Shown here: in pieces, positions 18,715 through 29,594 of the stretch
Numbering within the stretch: position 1 is the stretch's first letter
How the letters are laid out: each line of letters begins with the position of its first letter
Source of the DNA: an uncultured Syntrophaceae bacterium
Lineage (GTDB): Bacteria; Desulfobacterota; Syntrophia; Syntrophales; UBA2192
Length of the DNA: 64,000 nt
Direction: 5' to 3'
NCBI GenBank assembly: GCA_964628025.1
Contig: CAZVLL010000012.1
Coordinates: 12,784 to 76,783 of the forward strand
Made by a program: the position numbers and the translations under genes
The notes under the pieces: model-generated
Databases searched by the model: none
What the model saw: only the letters and a program-made list of their open reading frames with translations
What the model was told of the DNA's origin: nothing

Positions 18715-19635
18715 TTAGAAGCTAACCTTGTCCAGCCCCTTCAATCCCAGGATCTGCCTTGCCTCGTCGGGGGTGGCCGGTTCATTGCCCAGTTCGCGAA
18801 CGATGCGGATGATCTTGGCAACCTGTTCGGCACTGCTTTTTGCGAGGACACCTTTTTCAAGGTACAGGCTGTCCTCGAGACCCACGCGGGCATGCCCCCC
18901 CATCAAAAGGGATCCGGTGCACATGGGGATCTGCGCACGGCCGGCTGCGCATACGGAGAACTGGAAGTCGCCGATCTGCTTGCGGGCCGTTTCCACCAGG
19001 TAGACCAGGTGTTCCAGGGTCGCCGGGATTCCGCCCAGGATGCCCATGACGAACTGGAGGTAGACAGGTTTTTTTGCGGTTCCCTTCTGGAGCAGGAAGG
19101 CAAGGTTGTTGATCATCCCCACATCGTAGATCTCGAACTCCGGCTTTGCCCCGTTGGCGTAGATGATCTCCAGGTACTGCCGCATGGTCTTGAAGGTGTT
19201 CGGGAAGATGAAGTCCTCCGTCAGATCGAGATACGCCTCCTCCCAGTCGTACTTGAACTCCTTGACCTGGTCCTTGATGTGGAACAGGGCGAAGTTGAGC
19301 GAGCCTGCGTTGAGGGAGGTCAGCTCCGGCTTGAGATTCGAGGCGACCCGGACCCGGTTCTCAACGGGTTCACCGAGTTTCCCGCCGGTGGTGAAGCACA
19401 TGACGACGTTGCAGCGTTTCCTGACGGCCGCCGCAATCTCCCGGTAGATGTTCTGGTCGGCGTTCGGCATGCCCGTTTCGGGATCCCTTACGTGAATGTG
19501 CACGACGGCGGCCCCCGCTTCGTAAGAACGGATGGCTTCGTCGATCAGCTGCTTCGGGGTCACCGGCAGGTACGGTGACATGCTTGGGGTGTGGATGGCG
19601 CCGGTCAGTGCGGCGGTAACGATTCTCTTGTTCAT
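18715..19635 (-). CDS. 3-keto-5-aminohexanoate cleavage enzyme family (BKACE/DUF849), paralog 1
   Basis: TAALTGA, metal-binding HIH (AGAAVVHIHVRD), EFEIYD, GGHARVGLED. Confidence 0.93.
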   Translation of the reverse strand: MNKRIVTAALTGAIHTPSMSPYLPVTPKQLIDEAIRSYEAGAAVVHIHVRDPETGMPNADQNIYREIAAAVRKRCNVVMCFTTGGKLGEPVENRVRVASNLKPELTSLNAGSLNFALFHIKDQVKEFKYDWEEAYLDLTEDFIFPNTFKTMRQYLEIIYANGAKPEFEIYDVGMINNLAFLLQKGTAKKPVYLQFVMGILGGIPATLEHLVYLVETARKQIGDFQFSVCAAGRAQIPMCTGSLLMGGHARVGLEDSLYLEKGVLAKSSAEQVAKIIRIVRELGNEPATPDEARQILGLKGLDKVSF

Positions 19636-19656
19636 GACAATCTTCCGCTTGCCTTT

Positions 19657-20619
19657 CTACACATAGAATTTTCTGTTCTGTTCGAATTCCCGGATAAAGT
19701 CTTCGACAAGCTTGACGAGAGGATAGGCAAGCTGCCAGCCCCACTCTTTCCGGGCGCACTCATCGCTGATCTTCAGGGTTCCGAGTTCGCGGAGAAGTCC
19801 CACGACGACAGGGTCCGGATTGAAGGAGAGTTTTGCGCCGGGGATTCGATTTTCGATGACTTCCGCCAGCTCGCCGGCGGAGTAAGGCGGCGTGATCCCG
19901 GCGATGTTGTAGATCCTCGTCTCGATCCGGGATGGATCGGCCGCAGAGAGCATCCTGAGGGCCATGGCGGCATCCTTGTAGTAGAGAGCCGGACAGCGTG
20001 TCCCCGGCTCGCAGTTGATCTCGTAGGGGAGTCCTTTGAGGGAATATTCAATCGCCCAGGCGTTGTAGATCGACATGTGCGCCGTTCTTGCGCCGGGCCC
20101 CACAATGGAGGGCAGGCGCACACCCCGGAAGTCGAGGCCGAAGCGCCGGTGATACCACCGGCCCAGCAGTTCGCCGAAGGTTTTCGTGATGCCATAGAAG
20201 CTCGTCGGACGCTGGATCGTGCAGTCGTTGATCGTATCCCCCGGAATGTCCTTGCTGTAGGTGGCAATCGTGCTGCCGTAGACCACCTGCTTCATTTTTT
20301 TTATCCGGGCTGCCTCCAGCACGTTCCAGGTGCCGACAGCGTTGGCGTCAAAGGCGGCCGACGGATTCTGTTCCGACGGCAGGGAGAGCATCCCCCCAAG
20401 GTGAAAAATGCGGTCGACACCATGCCGCTCGACGCAATCCATCAGGACGGGAAGGTGCGCAAGGCTTCCCCGTTCGAAAACGAAGTGATCGCTGTGCTCC
20501 GAAAGCGGCCCCTGAACCGGTGCGATGTCAAAGAGGACAGGCCGCTCCCCTTCGTCGATGAGAATCTTTGCAAGGCAGGCGCCGATAAAACCGGCCCCCC
20601 CGGTGATCATAGTTGCCAT
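19657..20619 (-). CDS. Extended SDR NAD-dependent dehydrogenase/epimerase, L-threonine 3-dehydrogenase-like
   Basis: TGGAGFIG, STIATY, YGITK (YxxxK); similar to SDR-type TDH. Confidence 0.85.
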   Translation of the reverse strand: MATMITGGAGFIGACLAKILIDEGERPVLFDIAPVQGPLSEHSDHFVFERGSLAHLPVLMDCVERHGVDRIFHLGGMLSLPSEQNPSAAFDANAVGTWNVLEAARIKKMKQVVYGSTIATYSKDIPGDTINDCTIQRPTSFYGITKTFGELLGRWYHRRFGLDFRGVRLPSIVGPGARTAHMSIYNAWAIEYSLKGLPYEINCEPGTRCPALYYKDAAMALRMLSAADPSRIETRIYNIAGITPPYSAGELAEVIENRIPGAKLSFNPDPVVVGLLRELGTLKISDECARKEWGWQLAYPLVKLVEDFIREFEQNRKFYV

Positions 20620-20658
20620 AGAAAATCCTGATAACGCTGCAATGTCGAATAGTGGATA

Positions 20659-20694
20659 GCCGGGGCAGGGGCACCCTCGAGCCCCTGCCCCGGC
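20659..20694. other. Perfect 14-bp GC-rich hairpin after the binding-protein gene
   Basis: GCCGGGGCAGGGGC-ACCCTCGA-GCCCCTGCCCCGGC with no clear U-tract. Confidence 0.75.
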
Positions 20695-20708
20695 GGAAAC
20701 GGCAACGG

Positions 20709-21911
20709 CTACTTCATCTTGCAGCCGGTCTGCTCACAGGGCACCTCGACGTCCTTTGCGGGGATCATCGTGGCGGGCCCCTCGAAGGCGTGCTCCTTGA
20801 AGAACTTGTTGTTTTTCACGATCTCGACGACCCAATAGGGGGTCTGCGCCTGGTGATCGCAGGCCCGCATGGTCCAGGTGCCGGCGATGCCATCGTAGGA
20901 GAGGCCTTCCCAGGCCTTGATAACGGCGGCCACATCGGTCGTACCGGCCTTCTTCACCGCCTCGGCCCAGAACATCGTGGCCATGTAGGACTTGCCGCGG
21001 AGCCACGTCGGGTAGTACCCCTTGTCTTTCTTGAATTTTGCGATGAATTCCTGGTTCTTCTTGTTGGGGATGGAGAGCACGTAGACCTCTGCACCCATGT
21101 CGCCGATGATGAGCTTGTCGTCACCGAGGGATTGGATCATGACCTCGTCGTTGATGTAGTAGGAGAACACCTTCTGCTTCAGACCCATGGGCCTGCCCTG
21201 CTTCAAGAGAAGCGTCAGGTCATTGCCCCAATTGGGCGTGAAGATGACGTCGGGCTTGGCTGCGATCAGCTGGCTCGCGTAGGGGGCGAAATCCTTCGTG
21301 CCGGCGGGATGGTATAGCTCGGCCACGATATTCGTCGAGGGGCTGAGCTGGGCAATCTTCTTCTTGAATGCTGCGACGGCTTCCTTGCCAAAGGAGTAGT
21401 CCTGGGCGATGATACCGACCTTCTTGTAGCCTTTCTTCACGATGAGCTGCGCCAGCGCGAAGGAACGGCCGTCGGTGCTCCCGCCGGGCCGGAAGAAGTT
21501 CTTGTTGCACTTCTCGCCGGTCATACTGGAGGCGTCCATGCCGTAGGTGAACATGATCACGTTCTGCTTTTCTGCAAGCTGGGCCATGGCCGCCCCGACG
21601 GAGCTGCCCGTGCCGCCGCAGAAGAACTTCACGCCGTCCTTCAGGATCAGGTTCTGAGCCTTGCGCGTGGCCACATCGGGCTTGAGCTCCGAGTCGATGG
21701 GGATGACTTCCACCTTCTTGCCGAGCAGTCCGCCGCTTTCATTGATCACCTTGGCGGCGTACACGACTCCCTCGAGATAACGCTCGCCGATGTCCTTGAA
21801 CGTTCCGGAGAGGGGCTCCGTTACGCCGATCTTGATCGTGTCCTGCGCTGCTGCGGGCACTGCCAGCATCAGCAGGACGGACAATACCGCCAGTCCTAAC
21901 ATCTTCTTCAT
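20709..21911 (-). CDS. ABC transporter substrate-binding protein (LivK/branched-chain amino acid family)
   Basis: Signal peptide; TIKIGVTEPLSG; INESGGLLGKKVE; QDYSFG; YHPAGTKDF. Confidence 0.92.
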   Translation of the reverse strand: MKKMLGLAVLSVLLMLAVPAAAQDTIKIGVTEPLSGTFKDIGERYLEGVVYAAKVINESGGLLGKKVEVIPIDSELKPDVATRKAQNLILKDGVKFFCGGTGSSVGAAMAQLAEKQNVIMFTYGMDASSMTGEKCNKNFFRPGGSTDGRSFALAQLIVKKGYKKVGIIAQDYSFGKEAVAAFKKKIAQLSPSTNIVAELYHPAGTKDFAPYASQLIAAKPDVIFTPNWGNDLTLLLKQGRPMGLKQKVFSYYINDEVMIQSLGDDKLIIGDMGAEVYVLSIPNKKNQEFIAKFKKDKGYYPTWLRGKSYMATMFWAEAVKKAGTTDVAAVIKAWEGLSYDGIAGTWTMRACDHQAQTPYWVVEIVKNNKFFKEHAFEGPATMIPAKDVEVPCEQTGCKMK

Positions 21912-22009
21912 AAATCCTTACCTCCCAGTTCTTAGACCGTCAGGTCTTGTGTTTTTCTCTTCACTCATGCACGTCCGCACTCATTCCCTTCTTCACTGGG
22001 TCCCGGACC

Positions 22010-22717
22010 CTACACTTCCAGATAGTTCTTTCGCACTTCCTCCGCCGCCAGCAGGGCCCCCGTGCCTCCCTCGAAGACCATCTGCCCCTTGCCCATGATG
22101 TAGAATCGGTCGGCCACCTTGATGGAGGCCTTGAAGTTCTGCTCCACCATGAGCACCGTTACCCCCGAGTTGCGCACGGCGGCGAGCATCTCCAGCACGT
22201 CCTTCACGATCAGGGGCGCAAGGCCCTCTGTGGGCTCGTCGACGAGGATGAGCTTGGGGTTTCCCATGAGGGTCCTCGCCACGGTGAGCATCTGCTGTTC
22301 CCCGCCGGAGAGGTGGCCGCCCTTGTTGTCTCGCCGGTCCTTGAGGCCGGGGAATTTTTCGTAGACTCTCTCGACGGTCCAGCCAGCGTTTTTCGCGGCG
22401 TCCTTCGAGCCCTTTACGCCCATGAGGAGATTCTCGTGGACGGAGAGGCTCCGGAAGATCCGCCGGTCCTCGGGGACGTAGCCGACGCCGAGACGGGCGA
22501 TCTCGTAGGGCTGCTTCCCGATCAGCTCCTGATCGTGAAAGCGGATGCTTCCCTCGCGGGGCCTCACGAGGCCCATGATGCTCTTGAGCGTGGTGGACTT
22601 TCCGACGCCATTTCGCCCGAGCAGGCAGACCAGCTCACCCTCGTTCAGGGTCATGGAGACGCCCTGGAGGATGTGACTCTTTCCATAATAGCTGTGGATG
22701 TCTTTTACCTCTAGCAT
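22010..22717 (-). CDS. livF: Branched-chain amino acid-type ABC transporter ATPase
   Basis: MLEVKDIHSYYG, GRNGVGKST, LSGGEQQML, DEPTEGLAP; start 2 nt after the livG stop. Confidence 0.94.
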   Translation of the reverse strand: MLEVKDIHSYYGKSHILQGVSMTLNEGELVCLLGRNGVGKSTTLKSIMGLVRPREGSIRFHDQELIGKQPYEIARLGVGYVPEDRRIFRSLSVHENLLMGVKGSKDAAKNAGWTVERVYEKFPGLKDRRDNKGGHLSGGEQQMLTVARTLMGNPKLILVDEPTEGLAPLIVKDVLEMLAAVRNSGVTVLMVEQNFKASIKVADRFYIMGKGQMVFEGGTGALLAAEEVRKNYLEV

Positions 22718-22719
22718 GG

Positions 22720-23463
22720 TTATCCGTCCCCCAGGTAGGCGTCCTTCACCCGCTGGTCGTTGCGGATCTCGTCGGGCTTGCCCGAGACGAGGATCGTGCC
22801 GTAGTGAAGGACCGAAATCGTGTCGGCAAGCGAGAACACCACGTCCATGTCGTGTTCGATGATGATCAGCGTTCGGCCCGCCGTAACCCGGTCGATCATC
22901 CGGATGGCCTGGCCCGTCTCCTCGCGCGTCATTCCCGCCGTGGGCTCGTCCAGCAGGATCAATTCGGGCTCTGTCGACAGGGTGATGCCGATCTCCAGGG
23001 CCCGCTGCTGGCCATAAGACAGGCCGCTGACGGGCATGTGCAGGACATCCTTCAGCCCGACCTCCTCGACGAGGGCTTGCGTGCGTTCGTTGATTTCCCG
23101 ATTGTGATCGGGCCTGCGGAAGAAGTGATACCGCATCCCGTAACGGGAGCGCACGCCGGAGCGGATGTTTTCGAAGGCGGAAAGCTCCTGGAACACGTTG
23201 GTGATCTGGAACGATCGCGACAGCCCGGAGCGGTTGAGGGCATGGGCGGGTTTGCCGGAGATGTCCCGGCCCTTGAACAGGATCGCGCCTGAACTGGCCT
23301 TGAACTTCCCGCTGATGATGTTGAAGAGCGTCGTCTTGCCCGCCCCGTTGGGGCCGATGACGGCGTGACGCTCCTTTTGTCTCACCGTGAAATCGACACC
23401 GGTGAGGACCTTGAGACCCGAGAAGTCCTTGTGGATGTCCTTGATGTGCAGGTATTCGCTCAT
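22720..23463 (-). CDS. livG: Branched-chain amino acid-type ABC transporter ATPase
   Basis: GPNGAGKTT, LSYGQQRALE, LLDEPTAG, IEHDMD, V..AYLG. Confidence 0.94.
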   Translation of the reverse strand: MSEYLHIKDIHKDFSGLKVLTGVDFTVRQKERHAVIGPNGAGKTTLFNIISGKFKASSGAILFKGRDISGKPAHALNRSGLSRSFQITNVFQELSAFENIRSGVRSRYGMRYHFFRRPDHNREINERTQALVEEVGLKDVLHMPVSGLSYGQQRALEIGITLSTEPELILLDEPTAGMTREETGQAIRMIDRVTAGRTLIIIEHDMDVVFSLADTISVLHYGTILVSGKPDEIRNDQRVKDAYLGDG

Positions 23464-24461
23464 GAGGATGCTTCCTTGACTGCGATCGGTTTGCCCGTGT
23501 TGCGCTTTCCCGCAAAGAGGGTTTTGATCGACTGGATGATCTGCGAGAGCCCGCCGGGGATGAAGAGAACCATGAAGACGAAGATCAGTCCCATGAACAG
23601 GGGCCAGCGGTCCGTGATGTCGCTCAGGTAGTTCTGGAGGATGATGTAGACGAGTGCCCCCAGCATCGGCCCCCAGAAGGTCCCCGTCCCGCCCACGAAG
23701 GTCATGAGCAGCACCGTCGTCGTCATGTCGACGCTGATGGCCGACTGGGAGACGAACTGGAAATGCAGCGTGTAGAATGCCCCGGCCAGCCCCGCCACGG
23801 CCCCCGTGAAGGTGAAGAGAATGAGCCGGCTGATGTTGGTGTTGTACCCGAGAAACTTCATCCGCTCCTCGTTTTCGCGCATCATCAGCACCGTCTGCCC
23901 CATGGCCGTCTTCGTGAAGTACCAGCAGAACACGATGGCCGCCCCGACGATGACGAGGGTGAAGTAGTAAAAGCTCTCGATTCCCGTCATGCTGATCGTG
24001 GTGAACCCCAGGCCAAGGTCGGGCCGCGTGACACTCAGGCCGTCATCGCCGCCCGTGACGGTGTGCCACTTCGTGGCCACGGCATAGAAAAGCGCGTTGA
24101 AGGCCAGGGTGAGCAGCGCGAAGTAGGAGCCCTTATGCCGCAGCAGCAGCCCCCCCGCGATGAAGCCGACGGCCGTCGTCATGGCGAGTGCCATCGCGAT
24201 GGCGCTCCACATGGAGAGCCCGGGGATGTGAATCAGGGCCACGGCGACGGTGAAGGCCCCGGTGCCGAAAAACATGGCGTGCCCGAAGGAGAGCAGGCCC
24301 GCATAGCCGAGCAGGAGGTTGTAGCTGACGGCAAAGAGGGCAAACACGATGATCTCCGTCAGCATGTTCAGGTGGTACTGCTTGATCAGCATCGGCATCA
24401 CGGCCCCGAGGGCGAAGAGGACTGCGATGAAGAGATAGGGTGCGTTTTTCTGGGTCATCAT
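23460..24461 (-). CDS. livM: Branched-chain amino acid-type ABC transporter permease
   Basis: SYNLLLGYAGLLSFGHAMFFG, TGGDDG, MRENEER...LG. Confidence 0.93.
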   Translation of the reverse strand: MMTQKNAPYLFIAVLFALGAVMPMLIKQYHLNMLTEIIVFALFAVSYNLLLGYAGLLSFGHAMFFGTGAFTVAVALIHIPGLSMWSAIAMALAMTTAVGFIAGGLLLRHKGSYFALLTLAFNALFYAVATKWHTVTGGDDGLSVTRPDLGLGFTTISMTGIESFYYFTLVIVGAAIVFCWYFTKTAMGQTVLMMRENEERMKFLGYNTNISRLILFTFTGAVAGLAGAFYTLHFQFVSQSAISVDMTTTVLLMTFVGGTGTFWGPMLGALVYIILQNYLSDITDRWPLFMGLIFVFMVLFIPGGLSQIIQSIKTLFAGKRNTGKPIAVKEASS

Positions 24462-25318
24462 TGTTTTTCACCAAAGAGTCCGGAGGGCTTGATGATCAGG
24501 ACGGCGGCCATGAGCAGGTAGACCAGGGCCAGGGAGAGCTTCGGGAAGAGCAGCACCCCGAAGGACTGCAGCTCGCCGATGAGCAGCGAGGCGATCACGG
24601 CGCCCCCGAGGCTCCCGAAGCCGCCGACGACGATCACAACGAAGGCGTCGATGAGGATCTCGTGGGCCATGCCCGGGTAGGTCGAGAGCAGCGGCCCCGC
24701 GATGACGCCGGCAAAGCCGGAGAGTGCCGCGCCGAAGGCAAAGACGCCGGTGAAGACCCGGGGGACGTTGACGCCCAGTGCGTTTACCATCTCGCCGTCG
24801 TTGACGGCCGCCCGCAGGATGATCCCGAGACGGGTCTTGTAGAGGATGAGCGCCATCACGATCCCCACGAGGATGGCGCAGACGAAGATGAAGATCCGAT
24901 AGACGGGGTAGGTGATGCCGATGATCTCGACCGTGTCGCCCAGGAAACCCCTGATGTTCACGGCCAGGGGGTAGTTGCCCCAACCCCACTTCACCACTTC
25001 CGTAATAATATACGCAAGGCCGAAGGTGAGCAGCAGTTCGTGCAAGTGCCCGTGGGCGTGGACGCGTCGCAGCAGGAACCGCTCGATGAGGGCGCCGAGG
25101 GCAAACAGCAGAAGGGGGCAGACCATCAGCGACAGCCAGAACTGGTCCGTCGCCTGCAGCATGGTATAGGAAAAATATGCGCCCAGCATGTACATGGCCG
25201 CGTGGGCGAAGTTCAGGACATTCATCATCCCGAAGACCAGGGTCAGACCCGCCGAGACAAGGAACAGCAGACCCGCGTAGGCCAGCCCATGGAGAAAGAA
25301 AACAGGGAAATCGCTCAT
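24458..25318 (-). CDS. livH: Branched-chain amino acid-type ABC transporter permease
   Basis: GLTLVFGMMNVLNFAH, AFVVIVVGGFGS, KPSGLFG. Confidence 0.93.
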   Translation of the reverse strand: MSDFPVFFLHGLAYAGLLFLVSAGLTLVFGMMNVLNFAHAAMYMLGAYFSYTMLQATDQFWLSLMVCPLLLFALGALIERFLLRRVHAHGHLHELLLTFGLAYIITEVVKWGWGNYPLAVNIRGFLGDTVEIIGITYPVYRIFIFVCAILVGIVMALILYKTRLGIILRAAVNDGEMVNALGVNVPRVFTGVFAFGAALSGFAGVIAGPLLSTYPGMAHEILIDAFVVIVVGGFGSLGGAVIASLLIGELQSFGVLLFPKLSLALVYLLMAAVLIIKPSGLFGEKQ

Positions 25319-25387
25319 GAGAGTTACCTCGACATTGATCCGGTGAAACCGCCACTCTACGCCTTTACGGCAGGGAACCCTGTCCCG

Positions 25388-26347
25388 TCAGCCGTGTTTC
25401 ACCCCTCCGATGATTTCGTAAAGAATGCGCAGCAGGACCGTGTCACGCTGCCGGATGATCTGCTGGACTTTATCGGGTGTCCACTCGTAGAATCCCCGTC
25501 CGGCCTTGACGCCGGTTGCCCCCTCGGAAACCAGGTTCTCCAGGACCGGTGACGGCTTGGTGGCCGAATCGAGGTAGGGGAAGAGGTATTTGTGGATGTC
25601 CCGTGTCAGGACGAGACCGGCCAGGTCCGCCGTCTCCATGGGACCGATGAAGGGCATCCGGGCCCCGAAGCCGTACTTGACGACCTTGTCGATGTCCTCG
25701 GCACTCGCGACGTTTTTCTCGCAAAGCGATATGGCCTCCCGCCACATGGCGTGCTGGAGGCGGTTGCCGAGAAAGCCCGGCACGTCCTTGAGAACGCGGA
25801 CGGGCACCTTGCCCACCTTCTCCATGAGGGTGTAGATCGTTTCGAAGGCCCCTTCCCCGGTGTGCTCGCCACGGATCACCTCCACGCAGGGCAGTACCTG
25901 GGGCGGGTTCCAGAAGTGGGTCCCCAGGAAGCGCCCCCTGTCCTTCAGGGCGGATCCGATCTCGGTGATGCTGATGGCCGAGGTGTTGCTCGAGAAAATG
26001 GCATCGGGGGCCGCATGGCGCTCGACCTCGGCAAAGATCTTCCTCTTCAGGTCGAGATCCTCCAGGACGGCCTCGATGATGTACTGGGGGCCTTTGCACA
26101 GGGCCTCGAGGGAAGGGCAGAGAGCGATCCGGCCGAGGCAGCTTGCGACATCATCCGGCTTGGCCAGGCCGAGGGCGATAAACGACTTGAAGTTCGCTTC
26201 GATCCTTCCCTTCGCAGCCTCGAGAGTGGCCTTGTCCGCATCATAGAGATTCACATCGTAGCCCGCCGAGGCAAAGACCTGTGCGATACCGTGCCCCATG
26301 AGGCCGGCCCCGATCACGCCGATGCTCCGGATGTCCTTGAGCTCCAT
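25388..26347 (-). CDS. 3-hydroxyacyl(-CoA) dehydrogenase family protein (HBD/carnitine/gulonate dehydrogenase-like)
   Basis: GAGLMG, EAVLEDLDLK, SNTS, GTHFWNP, PGFLGNRLQ, GPMETADL; start MELKDIR just after the regulator stop. Confidence 0.92.
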   Translation of the reverse strand: MELKDIRSIGVIGAGLMGHGIAQVFASAGYDVNLYDADKATLEAAKGRIEANFKSFIALGLAKPDDVASCLGRIALCPSLEALCKGPQYIIEAVLEDLDLKRKIFAEVERHAAPDAIFSSNTSAISITEIGSALKDRGRFLGTHFWNPPQVLPCVEVIRGEHTGEGAFETIYTLMEKVGKVPVRVLKDVPGFLGNRLQHAMWREAISLCEKNVASAEDIDKVVKYGFGARMPFIGPMETADLAGLVLTRDIHKYLFPYLDSATKPSPVLENLVSEGATGVKAGRGFYEWTPDKVQQIIRQRDTVLLRILYEIIGGVKHG

Positions 26348-26349
26348 GC

Positions 26350-26946
26350 CTATGCCTTCCTTTCCTTGCCGTTGGTGGGGTTGTAGATGACCATGAAGCA
26401 CTTGACCTCCGCGGGGCCGATGGACTCCCCGAAATGGGGGAGACCCGAATCGAAGTAGATGCAATCCCCCTCGTTAACGACATACTCCTCGTTGCTGTGC
26501 AGGAATTTCATCGTTCCCTGGATGACAAAGAGGATTTCCTCCCCCTCGTGCTGGTAGAGGGTCCGTTTCTTCGGTTTGACGGGGAGGGTGAGGATGAAAG
26601 GTTCCATGATCTTGTTCGGGTATTTATAGGCCATGGCCTCGTAGGAATACCCGAAGGCGGTGCCGTCCCTGGAGATGAGGGGACGTTCATCCTTCCGCAC
26701 AAGGCACAGGGATGTGCGGGGCGCTTCTTCGCCCAGGAGGGCCGAGATGGTGACGCCGAGGACCCGGGCGATGATCCCGAGCGTGGAGACGGGGGGGGAC
26801 TTTTTCGATTTTTCGACTTTCGACAGGTAACCCTTCGTGAAGCCCGCCTGCTTGGCCAGCTGCTCGAGAGTGATCCGTTTCTGCGTCCGGAAGGCCTTGA
26901 TCCGCTTGCCGATTTCGGCCTCGACGATCGCCTGTTCTTGTTTCAT
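26350..26946 (-). CDS. XRE-family HTH regulator with cupin sensor domain
   Basis: IGKRIKAFR...TLEQLAKQAGFTKGYLSKVE HTH; HEGEE...GDCIYFDSGLPH cupin. Confidence 0.93.
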   Translation of the reverse strand: MKQEQAIVEAEIGKRIKAFRTQKRITLEQLAKQAGFTKGYLSKVEKSKKSPPVSTLGIIARVLGVTISALLGEEAPRTSLCLVRKDERPLISRDGTAFGYSYEAMAYKYPNKIMEPFILTLPVKPKKRTLYQHEGEEILFVIQGTMKFLHSNEEYVVNEGDCIYFDSGLPHFGESIGPAEVKCFMVIYNPTNGKERKA

Positions 26947-27046
26947 TTCGGTTTACTTTCCCGATATGTCAGAGGGGAATGTTTGTGTAACTAGCTGATT
27001 TACATAACAAACAAGATGAAACAAAATGTATCCTTACGGGAAACTT

Positions 27047-27074
27047 ATTATCCGCACGCAGTGCATCCTGTCAA
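27047..27074 (-). promoter_or_regulatory. Sigma70-type promoter candidate for the XRE-dehydrogenase-liv operon
   Basis: Minus strand TTGACA-N16-GATAAT in an AT-rich intergenic region. Confidence 0.6.
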
Positions 27075-27127
27075 GGGTTTTTTAATGGAAATTCGATTTT
27101 CGTGAAACAGCGAGGGATGCTGGGGGG

Positions 27128-28051
27128 CTAGAAGTTCACCTTGTTTAAGCCTTTCAGCTCCAGGAGCTGCCTTGCCTCATCGGGAGTGGCCGGTTCGCTG
27201 CCCAGCTCCCGGATGATCCGGGCCATCTTGCGAACCGATTCGGCGTTGCTTTTCGCGAGCTGTCCTTTTTCCAGGTAGAGGTTGTCTTCGAGGCCCACGC
27301 GGCAGTGGCCGCCCAGGATGACGGACTGGGCGCACAGGGGGAATTGGGCTCGTCCCGCGACACAGACGGAAAACTCGAACTCACCGATGAGCTTCTTTGC
27401 GTAATCGACCAGGAAAAGGATGTTTTCAGGGCTGGGTGTGATGCCGCCCAGTACGCCCATGACAAACTGGAGATAAACTGGTCGCTTGATGTGCCCGCGG
27501 TCGATTAGGACGGCTAGGTTGTTCACCATGCCGGCGTCGTAGATCTCGAACTCGGGTTTCGTCTCGTTCAGGGTGAATATCCGGCTGAACTCACGCATGG
27601 ATTTGAAGGTGTTTGGAAAGATGAAGTCTTCTGTCATGGCGAGGTACTGGGGCTCCCAGTCGTGCTTGAAATCCTTCAACTTGTCCAGGGCGGGAAAGAG
27701 GGCGAAGTTCATAGAGCCGCCGTTAAGGGAAGCCATCTCCGGCCGGTAAAGAGACACGGGCGCCACGCGCTGATCCACCGTCATGCCGAGTCCTCCGCCC
27801 GTCGTGATACAGATTACCGCATTCGATCGGCCTTTGATGCTTCGTACGATCTCCCCCATGATGCCGACGTCTGATGAGGGCATCCCTGTCTCGGGGTTTC
27901 GACCGTGGACGTGGACGACGGCGGCACCGGCATCGCAGGCGGCCACAGCCTCATCGGCGATCTCCCGGGAAGTGAGGGGCAGATAGGGAGACATGGTGGG
28001 CGTGTGGATGCTTCCGGTGATGGCAGCGGTGATGATCGTCTTTTCCCTCAT
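27128..28051 (-). CDS. BKACE/DUF849 beta-keto acid cleavage enzyme, paralog 2
   Basis: TAAITGS, AGAAVVHVHGR, EFEIYD, GGHCRVGLED; colinear with 18715..19635. Confidence 0.93.
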   Translation of the reverse strand: MREKTIITAAITGSIHTPTMSPYLPLTSREIADEAVAACDAGAAVVHVHGRNPETGMPSSDVGIMGEIVRSIKGRSNAVICITTGGGLGMTVDQRVAPVSLYRPEMASLNGGSMNFALFPALDKLKDFKHDWEPQYLAMTEDFIFPNTFKSMREFSRIFTLNETKPEFEIYDAGMVNNLAVLIDRGHIKRPVYLQFVMGVLGGITPSPENILFLVDYAKKLIGEFEFSVCVAGRAQFPLCAQSVILGGHCRVGLEDNLYLEKGQLAKSNAESVRKMARIIRELGSEPATPDEARQLLELKGLNKVNF

Positions 28052-28253: not shown

Positions 28254-29594
28254 TTACTTGTTGCCGTTCTTTCTCCAGATGTTCATTTTCTCCGCTTCTT
28301 TTACCAGCCCGTCCCGCAGGTCGGGGTGGGCGACGTTGATCAGCGCCTCCGCTCTCTGCCAGGTGGACTTGCCTGCCAGGTCGGCCACGCCGAATTCCGT
28401 CACGATCAGATGGGCCTGCGTGCGCGGCACGGTCACGATCGAGCCCTGGGGCAGCATGGGGGTGATCCGGGATTTAATGGCGCCTGTTTTCTTGTCCGTA
28501 TAGGCGGCGTTGCAGCAGATGAAGGACTTCCCGCCTTCGGACATGTAGGCGCCGGTTGCGAAATCGAGCTGTCCGCCGGTGCCGCTGATGTGCCGCGGCC
28601 CTGAGGATTCGGACGAAACCTGCCCGAAGAGGTCGACCTCGACACATGCGTTGATGGAGATCATGTTGTCGTGCTGGCACATGACATGGGGGGCGTTGGT
28701 GTAGGAGACAGGATAGGATGCCAGCGAGGGGTTCATGTCGATCCAGTCATAGAGGAACTGGCTGCCGGCGGCGAAGGCGTAGGCGCTCTTCTTCTTGTCC
28801 ACGCCCTTCTTTTTGTTCGTCAGCTTGCCGGCCTCGTGCATGTGGTAGTACGCATCGACGAGCATCTCCGTGTGGCAGCCCAGGTCCTTGAGATCCGAAT
28901 GGGCCAGCTGGCTCCCGACGAAATTGGGCAGACCGCCGATGCCCAGCTGGATGCAGGCGCCGTTGGGGATCATGGGGACGATGAAGCCCGCGATCTTCTT
29001 GTCGATCTCCGTCGGGGCGGCGGGGGGGATCACTTCCACCTTGGATTCGAACTCGACGATCGCATCGACTTCGGAAATGTGCACCGTCTCATCACGGCCG
29101 CCCATCGCCCAGGGGAGAAGCGGGTTGACTTCGACGATGATCTTCTGCGCAACGTCCATTGCCGCGCGCACCGCCGCGTTGCCCATGTGCGTGTTGAAGA
29201 ACCCGTCCTTGTCCATCTTGGTCACGCGGATCATCGCCACGTCGAGGGATTTGATACTCTTCCGGTAGAACAGGGGCTGGTTGCGGAAGATCATGGGGTG
29301 ATAATAGCATCGGCCCCGGTCATGGAGCTTCCGGGCATAGCCCGTGAAATGCCAATCCTGGTATGTGAACACGTCCCCTTCCGGGTCCGATTCCACGCAG
29401 GCATTGGGGGTCAGGCTCAGGCAGTGGCGGATATTGATATCCTTGAGCTCGTTCTTGCGAGCAGCCAGGGCCTTGTCCAGGGCGACCGGCTTGGTGTGGC
29501 CAAAGCCGTAATCGATCCAGTCTCCACTCTTCACCACTTTCACAGCTTCTTCGGGGGTTGTAAGTTTCCTCTTGTACTCTTCTGCGTAAGACAT
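28254..29594 (-). CDS. Acetyl-CoA hydrolase/transferase (butyryl-CoA:acetate / 4-hydroxybutyrate CoA-transferase family)
   Basis: IQLGIGG, GCHTEML (catalytic Glu), SGTGGQLDF, IVTEFGVA. Confidence 0.93.
   Translation of the reverse strand: MSYAEEYKRKLTTPEEAVKVVKSGDWIDYGFGHTKPVALDKALAARKNELKDINIRHCLSLTPNACVESDPEGDVFTYQDWHFTGYARKLHDRGRCYYHPMIFRNQPLFYRKSIKSLDVAMIRVTKMDKDGFFNTHMGNAAVRAAMDVAQKIIVEVNPLLPWAMGGRDETVHISEVDAIVEFESKVEVIPPAAPTEIDKKIAGFIVPMIPNGACIQLGIGGLPNFVGSQLAHSDLKDLGCHTEMLVDAYYHMHEAGKLTNKKKGVDKKKSAYAFAAGSQFLYDWIDMNPSLASYPVSYTNAPHVMCQHDNMISINACVEVDLFGQVSSESSGPRHISGTGGQLDFATGAYMSEGGKSFICCNAAYTDKKTGAIKSRITPMLPQGSIVTVPRTQAHLIVTEFGVADLAGKSTWQRAEALINVAHPDLRDGLVKEAEKMNIWRKNGNK

Follow-up and report, generated by a model that had tools for sequence, protein, structure and literature searches.

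A widely conserved yet uncharacterised operon of a subsurface Syntrophales bacterium appears to serve the import of a small 3-hydroxy acid, its oxidation, and the cleavage of the product with acetyl-CoA into acetoacetate and an acyl-CoA. On balance, we lean towards this reading, in which the minus-strand genes between positions 18715 and 26946 of the window (the whole 64,000-nucleotide stretch that was analysed) form one operon that begins with an XRE-cupin regulator gene of its own, and an upstream BKACE gene, BKACE-A, is a separate, lineage-specific neighbour outside the conserved unit. As judged from sequence comparisons, the substrate is most likely a small neutral 3-hydroxy-monocarboxylate and not an amino acid. 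The preliminary description of the locus as an uncharacterised import-and-degrade cluster built on dehydrogenase and BKACE chemistry is supported, and comparison with the lysine fermentation, carnitine, phloroglucinol and deoxyribonate pathways gave no gene-for-gene match.

Organization and conservation of the gene cluster

The locus comprises eleven genes, all on the minus strand, including two BKACE paralogs. Their identity, order and common strand had been described correctly, as the ORF borders, identical to those given before, and the Pfam assignments confirm. The earlier list omitted the upstream neighbour, a butyryl-CoA:acetate CoA-transferase-like gene.

18715-26946, minus: conserved unit and putative operon (XRE-cupin, HADH, LivHMGF, binding protein, TDH-like SDR, one BKACE)
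18715-19635, minus: BKACE-B, 306 residues, last gene of the operon (Pfam PF05853, 341 bits)
19657-20619, minus: extended SDR with TDH-like fold, 320 residues (Pfam Epimerase)
20709-21911, minus: periplasmic substrate-binding protein of Liv/HAAT type, 400 residues (Pfam Peripla_BP_6, 275 bits)
22010-22720, minus: LivF ATPase (Pfam ABC_tran)
22720-23463, minus: LivG ATPase (Pfam ABC_tran)
23460-24461, minus: LivM permease (Pfam BPD_transp_2)
24458-25318, minus: LivH permease (Pfam BPD_transp_2)
25388-26347, minus: HADH-family dehydrogenase, 319 residues (Pfam 3HCDH_N and 3HCDH)
26350-26946, minus: XRE-family HTH and cupin regulator, 198 residues, first gene of the operon (Pfam HTH_3 and Cupin_2)
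27047-27074, minus: sigma-70-type promoter-like site TTGACA-16-GATAAT (11 of 12 matches in a consensus scan; a consensus match only)
27128-28051, minus: BKACE-A, 307 residues, upstream BKACE (Pfam BKACE, 340 bits)
28254-29594, minus: CoA-transferase of the acetyl-CoA hydrolase/transferase family, 446 residues (Pfam AcetylCoA_hydro and AcetylCoA_hyd_C)

The liv genes overlap or abut one another, and the start of the HADH gene overlaps the stop codon of the XRE gene. The promoter-like site occupies part of the 181 bp that separate BKACE-A from the regulator gene. In a single study, four metagenome runs yield unitigs that span the junction between these two genes without differences; three of these runs are possibly the source of the assembly. 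The binding protein carries a signal peptide. It scores far under the curated cut-offs for urea and LIV binding proteins, and matches to the nearest proteins of solved structure stop at 114 bits.

Comparison with about 60 related loci indicates that this arrangement is more than chance, because the same cassette (XRE-HADH-livHMGF-SBP-SDR-BKACE) is present again in at least 11 further genomes of the Desulfobacterota, each time with one BKACE. The order of the liv genes is kept in 12 loci, and the XRE-cupin regulator heads the cassette in 11. A search from BKACE-A found the cassette in L045, L048 (Desulfacinum infernum DSM 9756), L058 and L080. An independent search from the SDR across 400 sampled genomes of the phylum yielded nine loci with an SDR identity of at least 46% and enough flanking DNA; a BKACE gene adjoins the SDR gene in eight of them, and seven contain the full cassette with a single BKACE in each. 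In more distant loci, the three-enzyme set of BKACE, HADH and SDR is kept and the carrier is a DctPQM TRAP transporter, the binding protein of which has lactate- and keto-acid-binding proteins as its nearest relatives. The cassette-linked BKACEs are not monophyletic in a quick tree, suggesting that substrates may differ from locus to locus.

The two BKACE proteins

BKACE-A and BKACE-B are 62% identical over a gap-free alignment. As described previously, they are colinear and have an insert in common, containing the peptides KDFKHDWEPQYL and KEFKYDWEEAYL. These peptides belong to a segment, about 22 residues long, that is missing from the Kce-type paralog encoded in the same genome. The insert is a trait of the whole 310-residue subfamily, including PDB 3lot, 3e02, 3e49 and 8rio, and is not peculiar to the pair. 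Assignment to a subgroup places both proteins with BKACE15 of Paracoccus denitrificans (PDB 8RIO, 8RIP, 9HNF; PMC11961710), which cleaves neutral C5-C6 beta-keto acids. BKACE15, 3LOT, 3E02 and 3E49 match with scores of 247-353 bits and agree with the pair in the N-terminal pocket motif TGAIHTPSMSPYLP as well as in the residues for Zn binding and catalysis. Both BKACEs keep the Zn ligands (His-x-His and Glu) and the equivalents of the catalytic Glu E171 and of Arg R254 in BKACE15, and both have the TG[AS]IHTPSMSPYLP motif in common with BKACE15. However, no Liv importer and no TDH-like SDR is linked to BKACE15. Its physiological role is itself unassigned, and an aromatic-degradation context has been proposed (PMC11961710).

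The preliminary description envisaged both BKACEs in one pathway, each with one dehydrogenase per substrate or stereoisomer. Two dehydrogenases and two BKACEs do lie next to each other on one strand, and BKACE-A has no neighbouring dehydrogenase gene of its own in this genome. No terminator was detected after BKACE-A, and since the promoter-like site is a consensus match only, read-through from BKACE-A is possible. However, the unit in every other genome consists of two dehydrogenases and only one BKACE, and wherever the sequence upstream of another cassette extends far enough, a second BKACE is absent. The two proteins belong to different starred clades of the quick tree. Orthologs of BKACE-B close the same cassette in other genomes, whereas the clade-mates of BKACE-A follow the genes for a GntP permease and two HADHs in GntP-HADH-HADH-BKACE modules. 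The nearest ortholog of BKACE-A (84%, L001) directly precedes a LysM gene with no cassette between them. The promoter-like site ahead of the regulator also argues against the pairing. Moreover, different keto acids would call for different BKACEs, whereas a single BKACE suffices for two enantiomers, since both yield one keto acid. The pairing is therefore quite unlikely, and BKACE-A probably serves a different dehydrogenase. A candidate partner is an HADH2-type gene on another contig, C5, where an HADH2 ortholog (59%) lies beside genes for an MFS transporter and a sigma-54 activator.

The two dehydrogenases

The HADH-family protein keeps the catalytic Ser, His, Glu and Asn motifs. In the alignment, Lys56 of HBD corresponds to Leu61, and Asn221 of HBD to Gly228, which lies beside a 3-residue insert. 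The loss of these CoA-contact residues is common to all cassette HADH orthologs, whereas canonical HBDs in the same alignment keep both Lys56 and Asn221. Because the CoA-contact residues of true 3-hydroxybutyryl-CoA dehydrogenases are missing, ordinary beta-oxidation with a dehydrogenase acting only on CoA esters is unlikely, and the predicted substrate is a free 3-hydroxy acid and not a CoA ester. The free-acid enzyme TfD of Clostridium scatologenes has also been reported to lack the residues corresponding to Lys56 and Asn221 (PMC10470551).

The best PDB matches of the SDR are SDR-type L-threonine 3-dehydrogenases (141 bits). It shares with these enzymes (for example PDB 3A4V, 4YR9, 8GJB) the extended-SDR fold, the catalytic Thr and the YxxxK motif. 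However, the TDH loop PGGGTTDYA is gone, with a 4-residue deletion and PGARTAHMSIYN in its place. Both this loop and the C-terminal SWP motif, which is likewise replaced here, are found in the phylum's genuine TDH-like genes, and the cluster has no kbl partner gene. The SDR thus belongs to a distinct subfamily and is predicted to be a second NAD-dependent hydroxy-acid dehydrogenase. It could oxidise a second hydroxyl group, act as an epimerase or reduce acetoacetate.

The TDH-like SDR had led the preliminary description to lean towards an amino acid, and the substrate would then be a beta-hydroxy amino compound such as a threonine analogue, carnitine or a lysine-derived amino-keto acid. The Liv-type importer and the SDR fold are consistent with such a substrate, and so is the HADH family, which includes carnitine dehydrogenase. 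Lysine fermentation by Kdd and Kce also pairs a dehydrogenase with a BKACE, as do carnitine dehydrogenase and the dehydrocarnitine cleavage enzyme. Ornithine cyclodeaminase-family genes flanking two related loci leave some room for an amino-acid link. However, these known systems act on amino or trimethylammonium substrates, and the BKACE pocket position that corresponds to the amino-group-binding Glu14 of Kce is occupied by Ile here. All specific NCBIfam cut-offs are missed, widely so for Kce (264 against 382) and carnitine dehydrogenase (130 against 414). The loss of the TDH loop counts against an amino substrate as well, and the cassette contains no aminotransferase, ammonia-lyase or thioesterase gene. 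Related loci have TRAP and GntP carriers, and the lactate- and keto-acid-type TRAP proteins of the distant three-enzyme sets suggest a carboxylate, although this argument is indirect because the TRAP-linked SDRs have another loop motif, PGVKTPGIVQYN. An amino compound is thus highly improbable.

Substrate class and fate of acetoacetate

A small neutral 3-hydroxy-monocarboxylate is suggested by the grouping with BKACE15 and, in related loci, by the TRAP proteins and acetoacetate-CoA ligase. The Liv-type ABC importer and its binding protein would take up a 3-hydroxy-monocarboxylate of the C5-C6 class whose side chain is uncharged, for which 3-hydroxyvalerate, 3-hydroxyhexanoate and 3-hydroxy-5-oxo- or 3,5-dihydroxyhexanoate are candidates. 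The HADH-type enzyme would oxidise it, in the S form by family precedent, to the 3-oxo acid, and the SDR may take either a second hydroxyl group or the R enantiomer, in which case one keto acid would arise from both enantiomers. BKACE-B would then convert the 3-oxo acid and acetyl-CoA into acetoacetate and an acyl-CoA two carbons shorter, thereby activating the carbon skeleton with no ATP spent. A comparable route is the oxidative 2-deoxy-D-ribonate pathway of Pseudomonas simiae and Paraburkholderia, in which a transporter, an NAD-dependent dehydrogenase acting on a free 3-hydroxy acid and a BKACE yield acetoacetate and an acyl-CoA, followed by acetoacetate activation (PMC6365646). However, the deoxyribonate route relies on a single classical SDR, a lactonase and MFS transporters, with glycerate kinase downstream, and the cassette contains none of these.

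Among the candidates, (S)-3-hydroxy-5-oxohexanoate or 3,5-dihydroxyhexanoate would imply a lower pathway of phloroglucinol type, in which oxidation at C3 and C5 by the two dehydrogenases yields 3,5-dioxohexanoate (triacetate), from which BKACE forms acetoacetate and acetoacetyl-CoA. In the anaerobe C. scatologenes, TfD oxidises a free (S)-3-hydroxy acid to triacetate, and the BKACE TAL cleaves the keto acid with acetyl-CoA into acetoacetate and an acyl-CoA (PMC10470551). BKACE15, a fellow member of the 310-residue subfamily, accepts 3,5-dioxo- and 5-hydroxy-3-oxohexanoate. A doubly oxidised substrate would also suit two dehydrogenases per BKACE, and peat and fen MAGs are the source of many homologous loci. 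The NCBIfam equivalog for 3,5-dioxohexanoate:acetyl-CoA transferase (NF053538, cut-off 430) gives 417 bits with BKACE-A and 411 bits with BKACE-B, but scores across the subfamily form a continuum of 387-433 bits, so that closeness to the cut-off has little meaning. Phloroglucinol reductase and a cyclase-family ring hydrolase are absent in and near the cluster, which also has no dihydrophloroglucinol cyclohydrolase and adds an ABC importer and a TDH-like SDR, and the two cyclase-family genes of the genome lie on other contigs in unrelated contexts. Furthermore, the characterised TAL gene has 847 nt and encodes about 282 residues of the short Kce-like type, in contrast to the 306-307 residues with insert here. 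We know of no natural source of free 3,5-dihydroxyhexanoate. A phloroglucinol-type pathway is thus unlikely, albeit not negligible.

The favoured reading ends with acetoacetate activation, which in relatives would proceed via an adjacent acetoacetate-CoA ligase and here perhaps via the upstream CoA-transferase. A ligase homologue adjoins the cassette or the three-enzyme set in six related loci. The only two scored, in L109 and L087, exceed the cut-off of 639 bits with 911 and 903 bits, and that of L109 lies immediately after the SDR gene.

Alternatively, HADH alone would oxidise the imported acid, and the SDR would reduce the acetoacetate made by BKACE to 3-hydroxybutyrate for activation by the CoA-transferase. 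NADH would then be recycled, where a syntroph has scarce room. Threonine is 2-amino-3-hydroxybutyrate, and a TDH-like enzyme without the TDH loop could therefore plausibly take 3-hydroxybutyrate or acetoacetate. An HADH-family (S)-3-hydroxybutyrate dehydrogenase reportedly occurs in BKACE contexts. Acetoacetate inhibits BKACE15 with an IC50 of 1.45 mM, and a CoA-transferase gene is adjacent. However, the ligase homologues of the six related loci point to direct activation of acetoacetate, and such a redox-neutral scheme is very unlikely.

The CoA-transferase lies outside the conserved cassette and may be an accessory enzyme that activates acetoacetate or shifts CoA between acyl groups. It scores 561 bits on TIGR03948 (butyryl-CoA:acetate CoA-transferase; cut-off 675). 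The genome has six paralogs elsewhere, and the presence of closer paralogs there counts against the accessory role. Weak CoA-transferase homologs are found near some BKACE-A-type genes.

Gene order and conservation of the operon

The region consists of eleven consecutive genes, all on the minus strand. Their assignment with Pfam and NCBIfam confirmed the gene calls of the preliminary description:

28254-29594, minus strand: CoA-transferase of the acetyl-CoA hydrolase/transferase family (561 bits with TIGR03948, butyryl-CoA:acetate CoA-transferase, vs a cut-off of 675)
27128-28051, minus strand: upstream β-keto acid cleavage enzyme, BKACE-A (Pfam PF05853)
26350-26946, minus strand: XRE HTH and cupin regulator (Pfam)
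25388-26347, minus strand: HADH-family dehydrogenase (Pfam 3HCDH domains)
22010-25318, minus strand: LivH, LivM, LivG and LivF (Pfam)
20709-21911, minus strand: Peripla_BP_6 binding protein with a signal peptide (Pfam)
19657-20619, minus strand: extended SDR (Pfam)
18715-19635, minus strand: second β-keto acid cleavage enzyme, BKACE-B (Pfam PF05853)

From the regulator to BKACE-B, neighbouring genes overlap or are separated by gaps of no more than 98 bp. A wider gap of 181 bp lies between BKACE-A and the regulator, and it contains the best promoter-like site of the region (TTGACA-16-GATAAT, 27074-27047, by consensus match). The flanking genes are unrelated, being an AAA_22/SPOR protein gene on one side and a LysM protein gene on the other. 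In four metagenome runs belonging to one study, unitigs span the junction between BKACE-A and the regulator gene without differences; three of these runs may be the source of the assembly. The importer, of the HAAT/Liv type, is complete in one cluster, with a binding protein, two BPD_transp_2 permeases and two ATPases; none of these proteins reaches the LIV- or urea-transport cut-offs of NCBIfam.

Eighty related loci were fetched with BKACE-A as the query and then searched with all proteins of the window. The full set of regulator, HADH, LivHMGF, binding protein, SDR and BKACE is present in four of them (L045, L058, L080 and L048, the last from Desulfacinum infernum DSM 9756), and the set of HADH, SDR and BKACE is found in L024, L032 and L055. 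To counter the bias of this query, 400 sampled genomes of the phylum were searched with the SDR and 40 neighbourhoods were fetched. The full cassette occurs in seven of these (G178, which is L048, and G042, G096, G161, G191, G059 and G330), each with exactly one BKACE. SDR homologs of 44-47% identity mostly lie in the three-enzyme set of BKACE, HADH and SDR. This set is accompanied by a DctPQM TRAP transporter in eight or nine loci and stands beside an acetoacetate-CoA ligase homologue in six, two of which were scored (L109, 911 bits; L087, 903 bits; cut-off 639). Such recurrence of genes across loci points to a conserved functional core of two dehydrogenases, one BKACE and a carboxylate-type importer, often with acetoacetate activation adjacent.

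Crudely called ORFs in the flanks of L048, L058 and L080 gave no match to Pfam, and these are probably shadow ORFs in GC-rich DNA. Other genes flank the HADH-SDR-BKACE set in two loci from marine Desulfobacterales MAGs (L032:3928-5361 and L024:1083-3839). The flank in L032 contains a homolog of the LarA-family nickel-pincer hydroxy-acid isomerases (445 bits, under the cut-off), and both loci have ADP-forming acyl-CoA synthetase-like genes; these flanking genes may point to a role for hydroxy-acid stereochemistry and to the recovery of ATP from the acyl-CoA product. Genes of the ornithine cyclodeaminase/mu-crystallin family adjoin two otherwise dissimilar BKACE loci (L045:11034-12161 and L015:3091-4074).

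A 7-bp inverted repeat 3' of the promoter-like site, TGTTTGT ... ACAAACA, was considered as an operator and discarded, the pattern being missing from the orthologous loci; a repeat finder run at length 8 did not report it. In all four runs, the contig depth rises about five-fold at 23182-23595 of the window, in the 5' part of livG. This is likely due to conserved ABC ATPase sequence from other organisms of the metagenome and not to a copy-number feature.

Relationship and active sites of the two BKACEs

Both BKACEs match PF05853 over its full length (340 bits for BKACE-A and 341 bits for BKACE-B, cut-off 24.8, model positions 1-274) and align with each other without gaps over 304 residues at 62% identity. 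They had been described as colinear with a common insert. The colinearity holds and the quoted peptides are present, but the insert is not private to the pair. The stretch of about 22 residues that carries these peptides is missing from the Kce-type BKACE of the same genome on contig C10, Kce being the BKACE of lysine fermentation, and is a trait of an entire 310-residue subfamily, including PDB 3LOT, 3E02, 3E49 and 8RIO. Both enzymes keep the Zn-binding His-x-His and Glu, the catalytic Glu (E171 of BKACE15 from Paracoccus denitrificans) and an Arg (R254); H47, H49, E169, R251 and E255 (BKACE-A numbering) are invariant in the paralogs and align with the residues named for 8RIO. The N-terminal motif TG[AS]IHTPSMSPYLP is common to BKACE15 and both BKACEs.

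A phylogenetic tree of 86 homologs places BKACE-A and BKACE-B in different well-supported clades. Clade-mates of BKACE-A typically lie 3' of two HADH-like genes, preceded in L015 by a gene for a GntP-family permease. The nearest BKACE-A ortholog (84%, L001) directly precedes a LysM gene with no cassette between them, and the nearest BKACE-B orthologs (L061 and L069) likewise precede LysM. In view of the clade split and these neighbourhoods, the presence of a BKACE on each side of the operon is a lineage-specific trait. A model of two pairs, with one dehydrogenase and one BKACE for each substrate or stereoisomer, had been proposed earlier; it does not fit conserved loci with a single BKACE, nor the placement of BKACE-A in another clade. 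Elsewhere, a second type of HADH gene, HADH2, normally sits just upstream of BKACE-A-type genes, and an ortholog (59%) is found on contig C5 of the source genome. This dehydrogenase is a candidate in-trans partner of BKACE-A, and with HADH2 on C5 the BKACE-A module thus appears to be split between two contigs. On C5, at 151998-156055 (locus L126:5998-10055), the divergent HADH2-type dehydrogenase stands in a row with an MFS transporter and a sigma-54 activator that has a PAS domain.

The NCBIfam equivalog NF053538 (3,5-dioxohexanoate:acetyl-CoA (acetone) transferase, 310 positions) gives 417 bits with BKACE-A and 411 bits with BKACE-B, both under the curated cut-off of 430. Among sampled Bacillota, members of the 310-residue subfamily score 387-433 bits without gaps, and a search of 400 Bacillota genomes produced a single match over the cut-off, with scores running on continuously beneath it. 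By these scores the model fails to separate functions in this subfamily, and annotation based on it near the cut-off may be arbitrary. The characterised gene of this function, TAL of the phloroglucinol pathway in Clostridium scatologenes (CsTAL), is 847 nt long and of the short Kce-like type (PMC10470551 supplement). Because of the score continuum and the length of this gene, the equivalog's name is withheld from both enzymes. Trp16 of CsTAL was dropped as a marker, given the short type of its gene, and Trp at this position was found in no sampled 310-residue homolog.

The Kce model of NCBIfam is also missed, with 264 and 260 bits for the two BKACEs against a cut-off of 382. Glu14 of Kce binds the 5-amino group of the substrate (PMC10470551). 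The corresponding position is occupied by Ile in both BKACEs (TG[SA]IHTP vs TGAETT in 2Y7D).

The third BKACE of the genome, a protein of 285 aa outside the window (C10:80368-82613, locus L083), is of the short Kce-like type with Arg at the position of Kce Glu14. Directly upstream lies a 449-aa ORF that resembles class-III aminotransferases as judged by its N-terminal sequence, and the two may form a separate amino-keto-acid module.

Active sites of the two dehydrogenases

The HADH protein scores 207 and 80 bits with the 3HCDH models of Pfam, and its catalytic Ser, His, Glu and Asn are present in the motifs NTS, THFWNP, VEVI and GNRL. It misses every cut-off of the NCBIfam models for 3-hydroxybutyryl-CoA dehydrogenase (HBD) and falls short of the carnitine dehydrogenase equivalogs (130 vs 414 bits and 149 vs 592 bits). 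An HADH-family (S)-3-hydroxybutyrate dehydrogenase has reportedly been described. In HBD, CoA is contacted by Lys56 and Asn221 (C. butyricum HBD numbering), which are missing in TfD, the free-acid dehydrogenase of the phloroglucinol pathway (PMC10470551). Both contacts are also absent from the HADH protein, in which Lys56 is replaced by Leu61 and Asn221 by Gly228, the latter in a GFGxR motif with a 3-residue insert. This loss is common to the HADH orthologs of all cassettes and three-enzyme sets, whereas canonical HBDs in L071 and L010 retain KGK and GCNHP in the same alignment.

The SDR has the extended SDR fold and keeps the catalytic Thr and YxxxK (GSTIATY and YGITK). Its best PDB matches are SDR-type L-threonine 3-dehydrogenases (TDH). 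The substrate loop of TDH, PGGGTTDYA, is replaced by a 4-residue deletion and PGARTAHMSIYN, with the motif PGA[KR]TAHMSIYN. Of eight TDH-like genes taken from this phylum as controls, six retain GGTTDYA. As to a partner such as kbl (2-amino-3-ketobutyrate CoA ligase), none of the eleven cluster genes encodes an aminotransferase-fold enzyme.

Known pathways and the probable substrate

The underlying principle, in which a dehydrogenase supplies a BKACE that yields acetoacetate and an acyl-CoA, is already known. Comparison with the phloroglucinol, deoxyribonate, lysine fermentation and carnitine systems gave no gene-for-gene match to a characterised pathway, and the earlier view of the pathway as uncharacterised is thereby upheld. 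The anaerobic phloroglucinol cluster (PGR, DPGC, TfD and TAL) differs in its PGR and DPGC, which are missing here, and the 2-deoxy-D-ribonate pathway differs in having a classical SDR, a lactonase and MFS transporters. The curated cut-offs of the lysine fermentation and carnitine systems are missed widely by the enzymes of this cluster. Orthologs of BKACE-B abound in environmental Desulfobacterota, with more than 7000 sequence clusters at E <= 1e-60, and the source names shown for these clusters are only generic ('DUF849 family', '3-keto-5-aminohexanoate cleavage protein'). The cluster is thus a genuine orphan catabolic operon, conserved and abundant in the environment. Automatic annotation would interpret it as branched-chain amino acid transport, lysine fermentation, beta-oxidation and a sugar epimerase, and each of these four interpretations is probably wrong.

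We have moderate confidence that the substrate is a neutral C5-C6 3-hydroxy-monocarboxylate. The neutral pocket of the BKACE favours a small monocarboxylate, uncharged in its side chain, over an amino compound. The loss of the amino-binding features of Kce and TDH and the lack of an aminotransferase, a lyase and a thioesterase in the cassette also argue against an amino compound. Related modules swap the ABC system for TRAP and GntP carriers, and the binding protein of the TRAP system has its closest relatives among lactate- and alpha-keto-acid-binding proteins; both observations argue for a monocarboxylate. The leaning towards amino acids in the preliminary description is not supported in view of the Ile at the Kce Glu14 position, the replaced TDH loop and these carriers.

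The presence of two dehydrogenases per BKACE may be explained in two ways. The enzymes may be stereo-convergent, the HADH being specific for the S form and the TDH-derived SDR for the R form; at C3, L-threonine shares the configuration of (R)-3-hydroxybutyrate. The other possibility is that the pair oxidises two hydroxyls of a single substrate. The recurrent acetoacetate-CoA ligase homologue of the related loci confirms acetoacetate as a product and also speaks against acetoacetate reduction as the main role of the SDR. A specific form of the stereo-convergent reading, which we put forward as tentative and rather doubtful, is that the cassette serves the salvage of short 3-hydroxyalkanoates: the S-specific HADH and the R-specific SDR would lead to one 3-oxo acid, which the BKACE would thioesterify with acetyl-CoA, not ATP. 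Substrates would be, for example, the polyhydroxyalkanoate monomers 3-hydroxyvalerate and 3-hydroxyhexanoate. If true, such salvage would amount to a way of activating acids that saves energy and is widespread among syntrophs and sulfate reducers living under energy limitation, and it would establish two new enzyme subfamilies.

Knowledge of the substrate would give functions to a cassette that is abundant in anaerobic sediments, peat and the subsurface. It would also delimit two subfamilies, one of HADH enzymes independent of CoA and one of TDH-like SDRs that do not act on threonine, and reveal how anaerobes limited in energy can activate hydroxy acids with no use of ATP. Because the cassette is carried by a cultured organism, Desulfacinum infernum DSM 9756, the question is directly testable.

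Two cyclase-family (PF04199) genes, located elsewhere in the genome on contigs C1 and C5, were considered as ring-hydrolase candidates and rejected, as they lie away from any BKACE. At C5:67843-71081, unlinked to the BKACE operon, a 211-aa cyclase-family protein stands beside a 466-aa ORF, whose N-terminal DDDPTG motif resembles that of the DUF1537 acid-sugar kinases, and this stretch may be an acid-sugar module.
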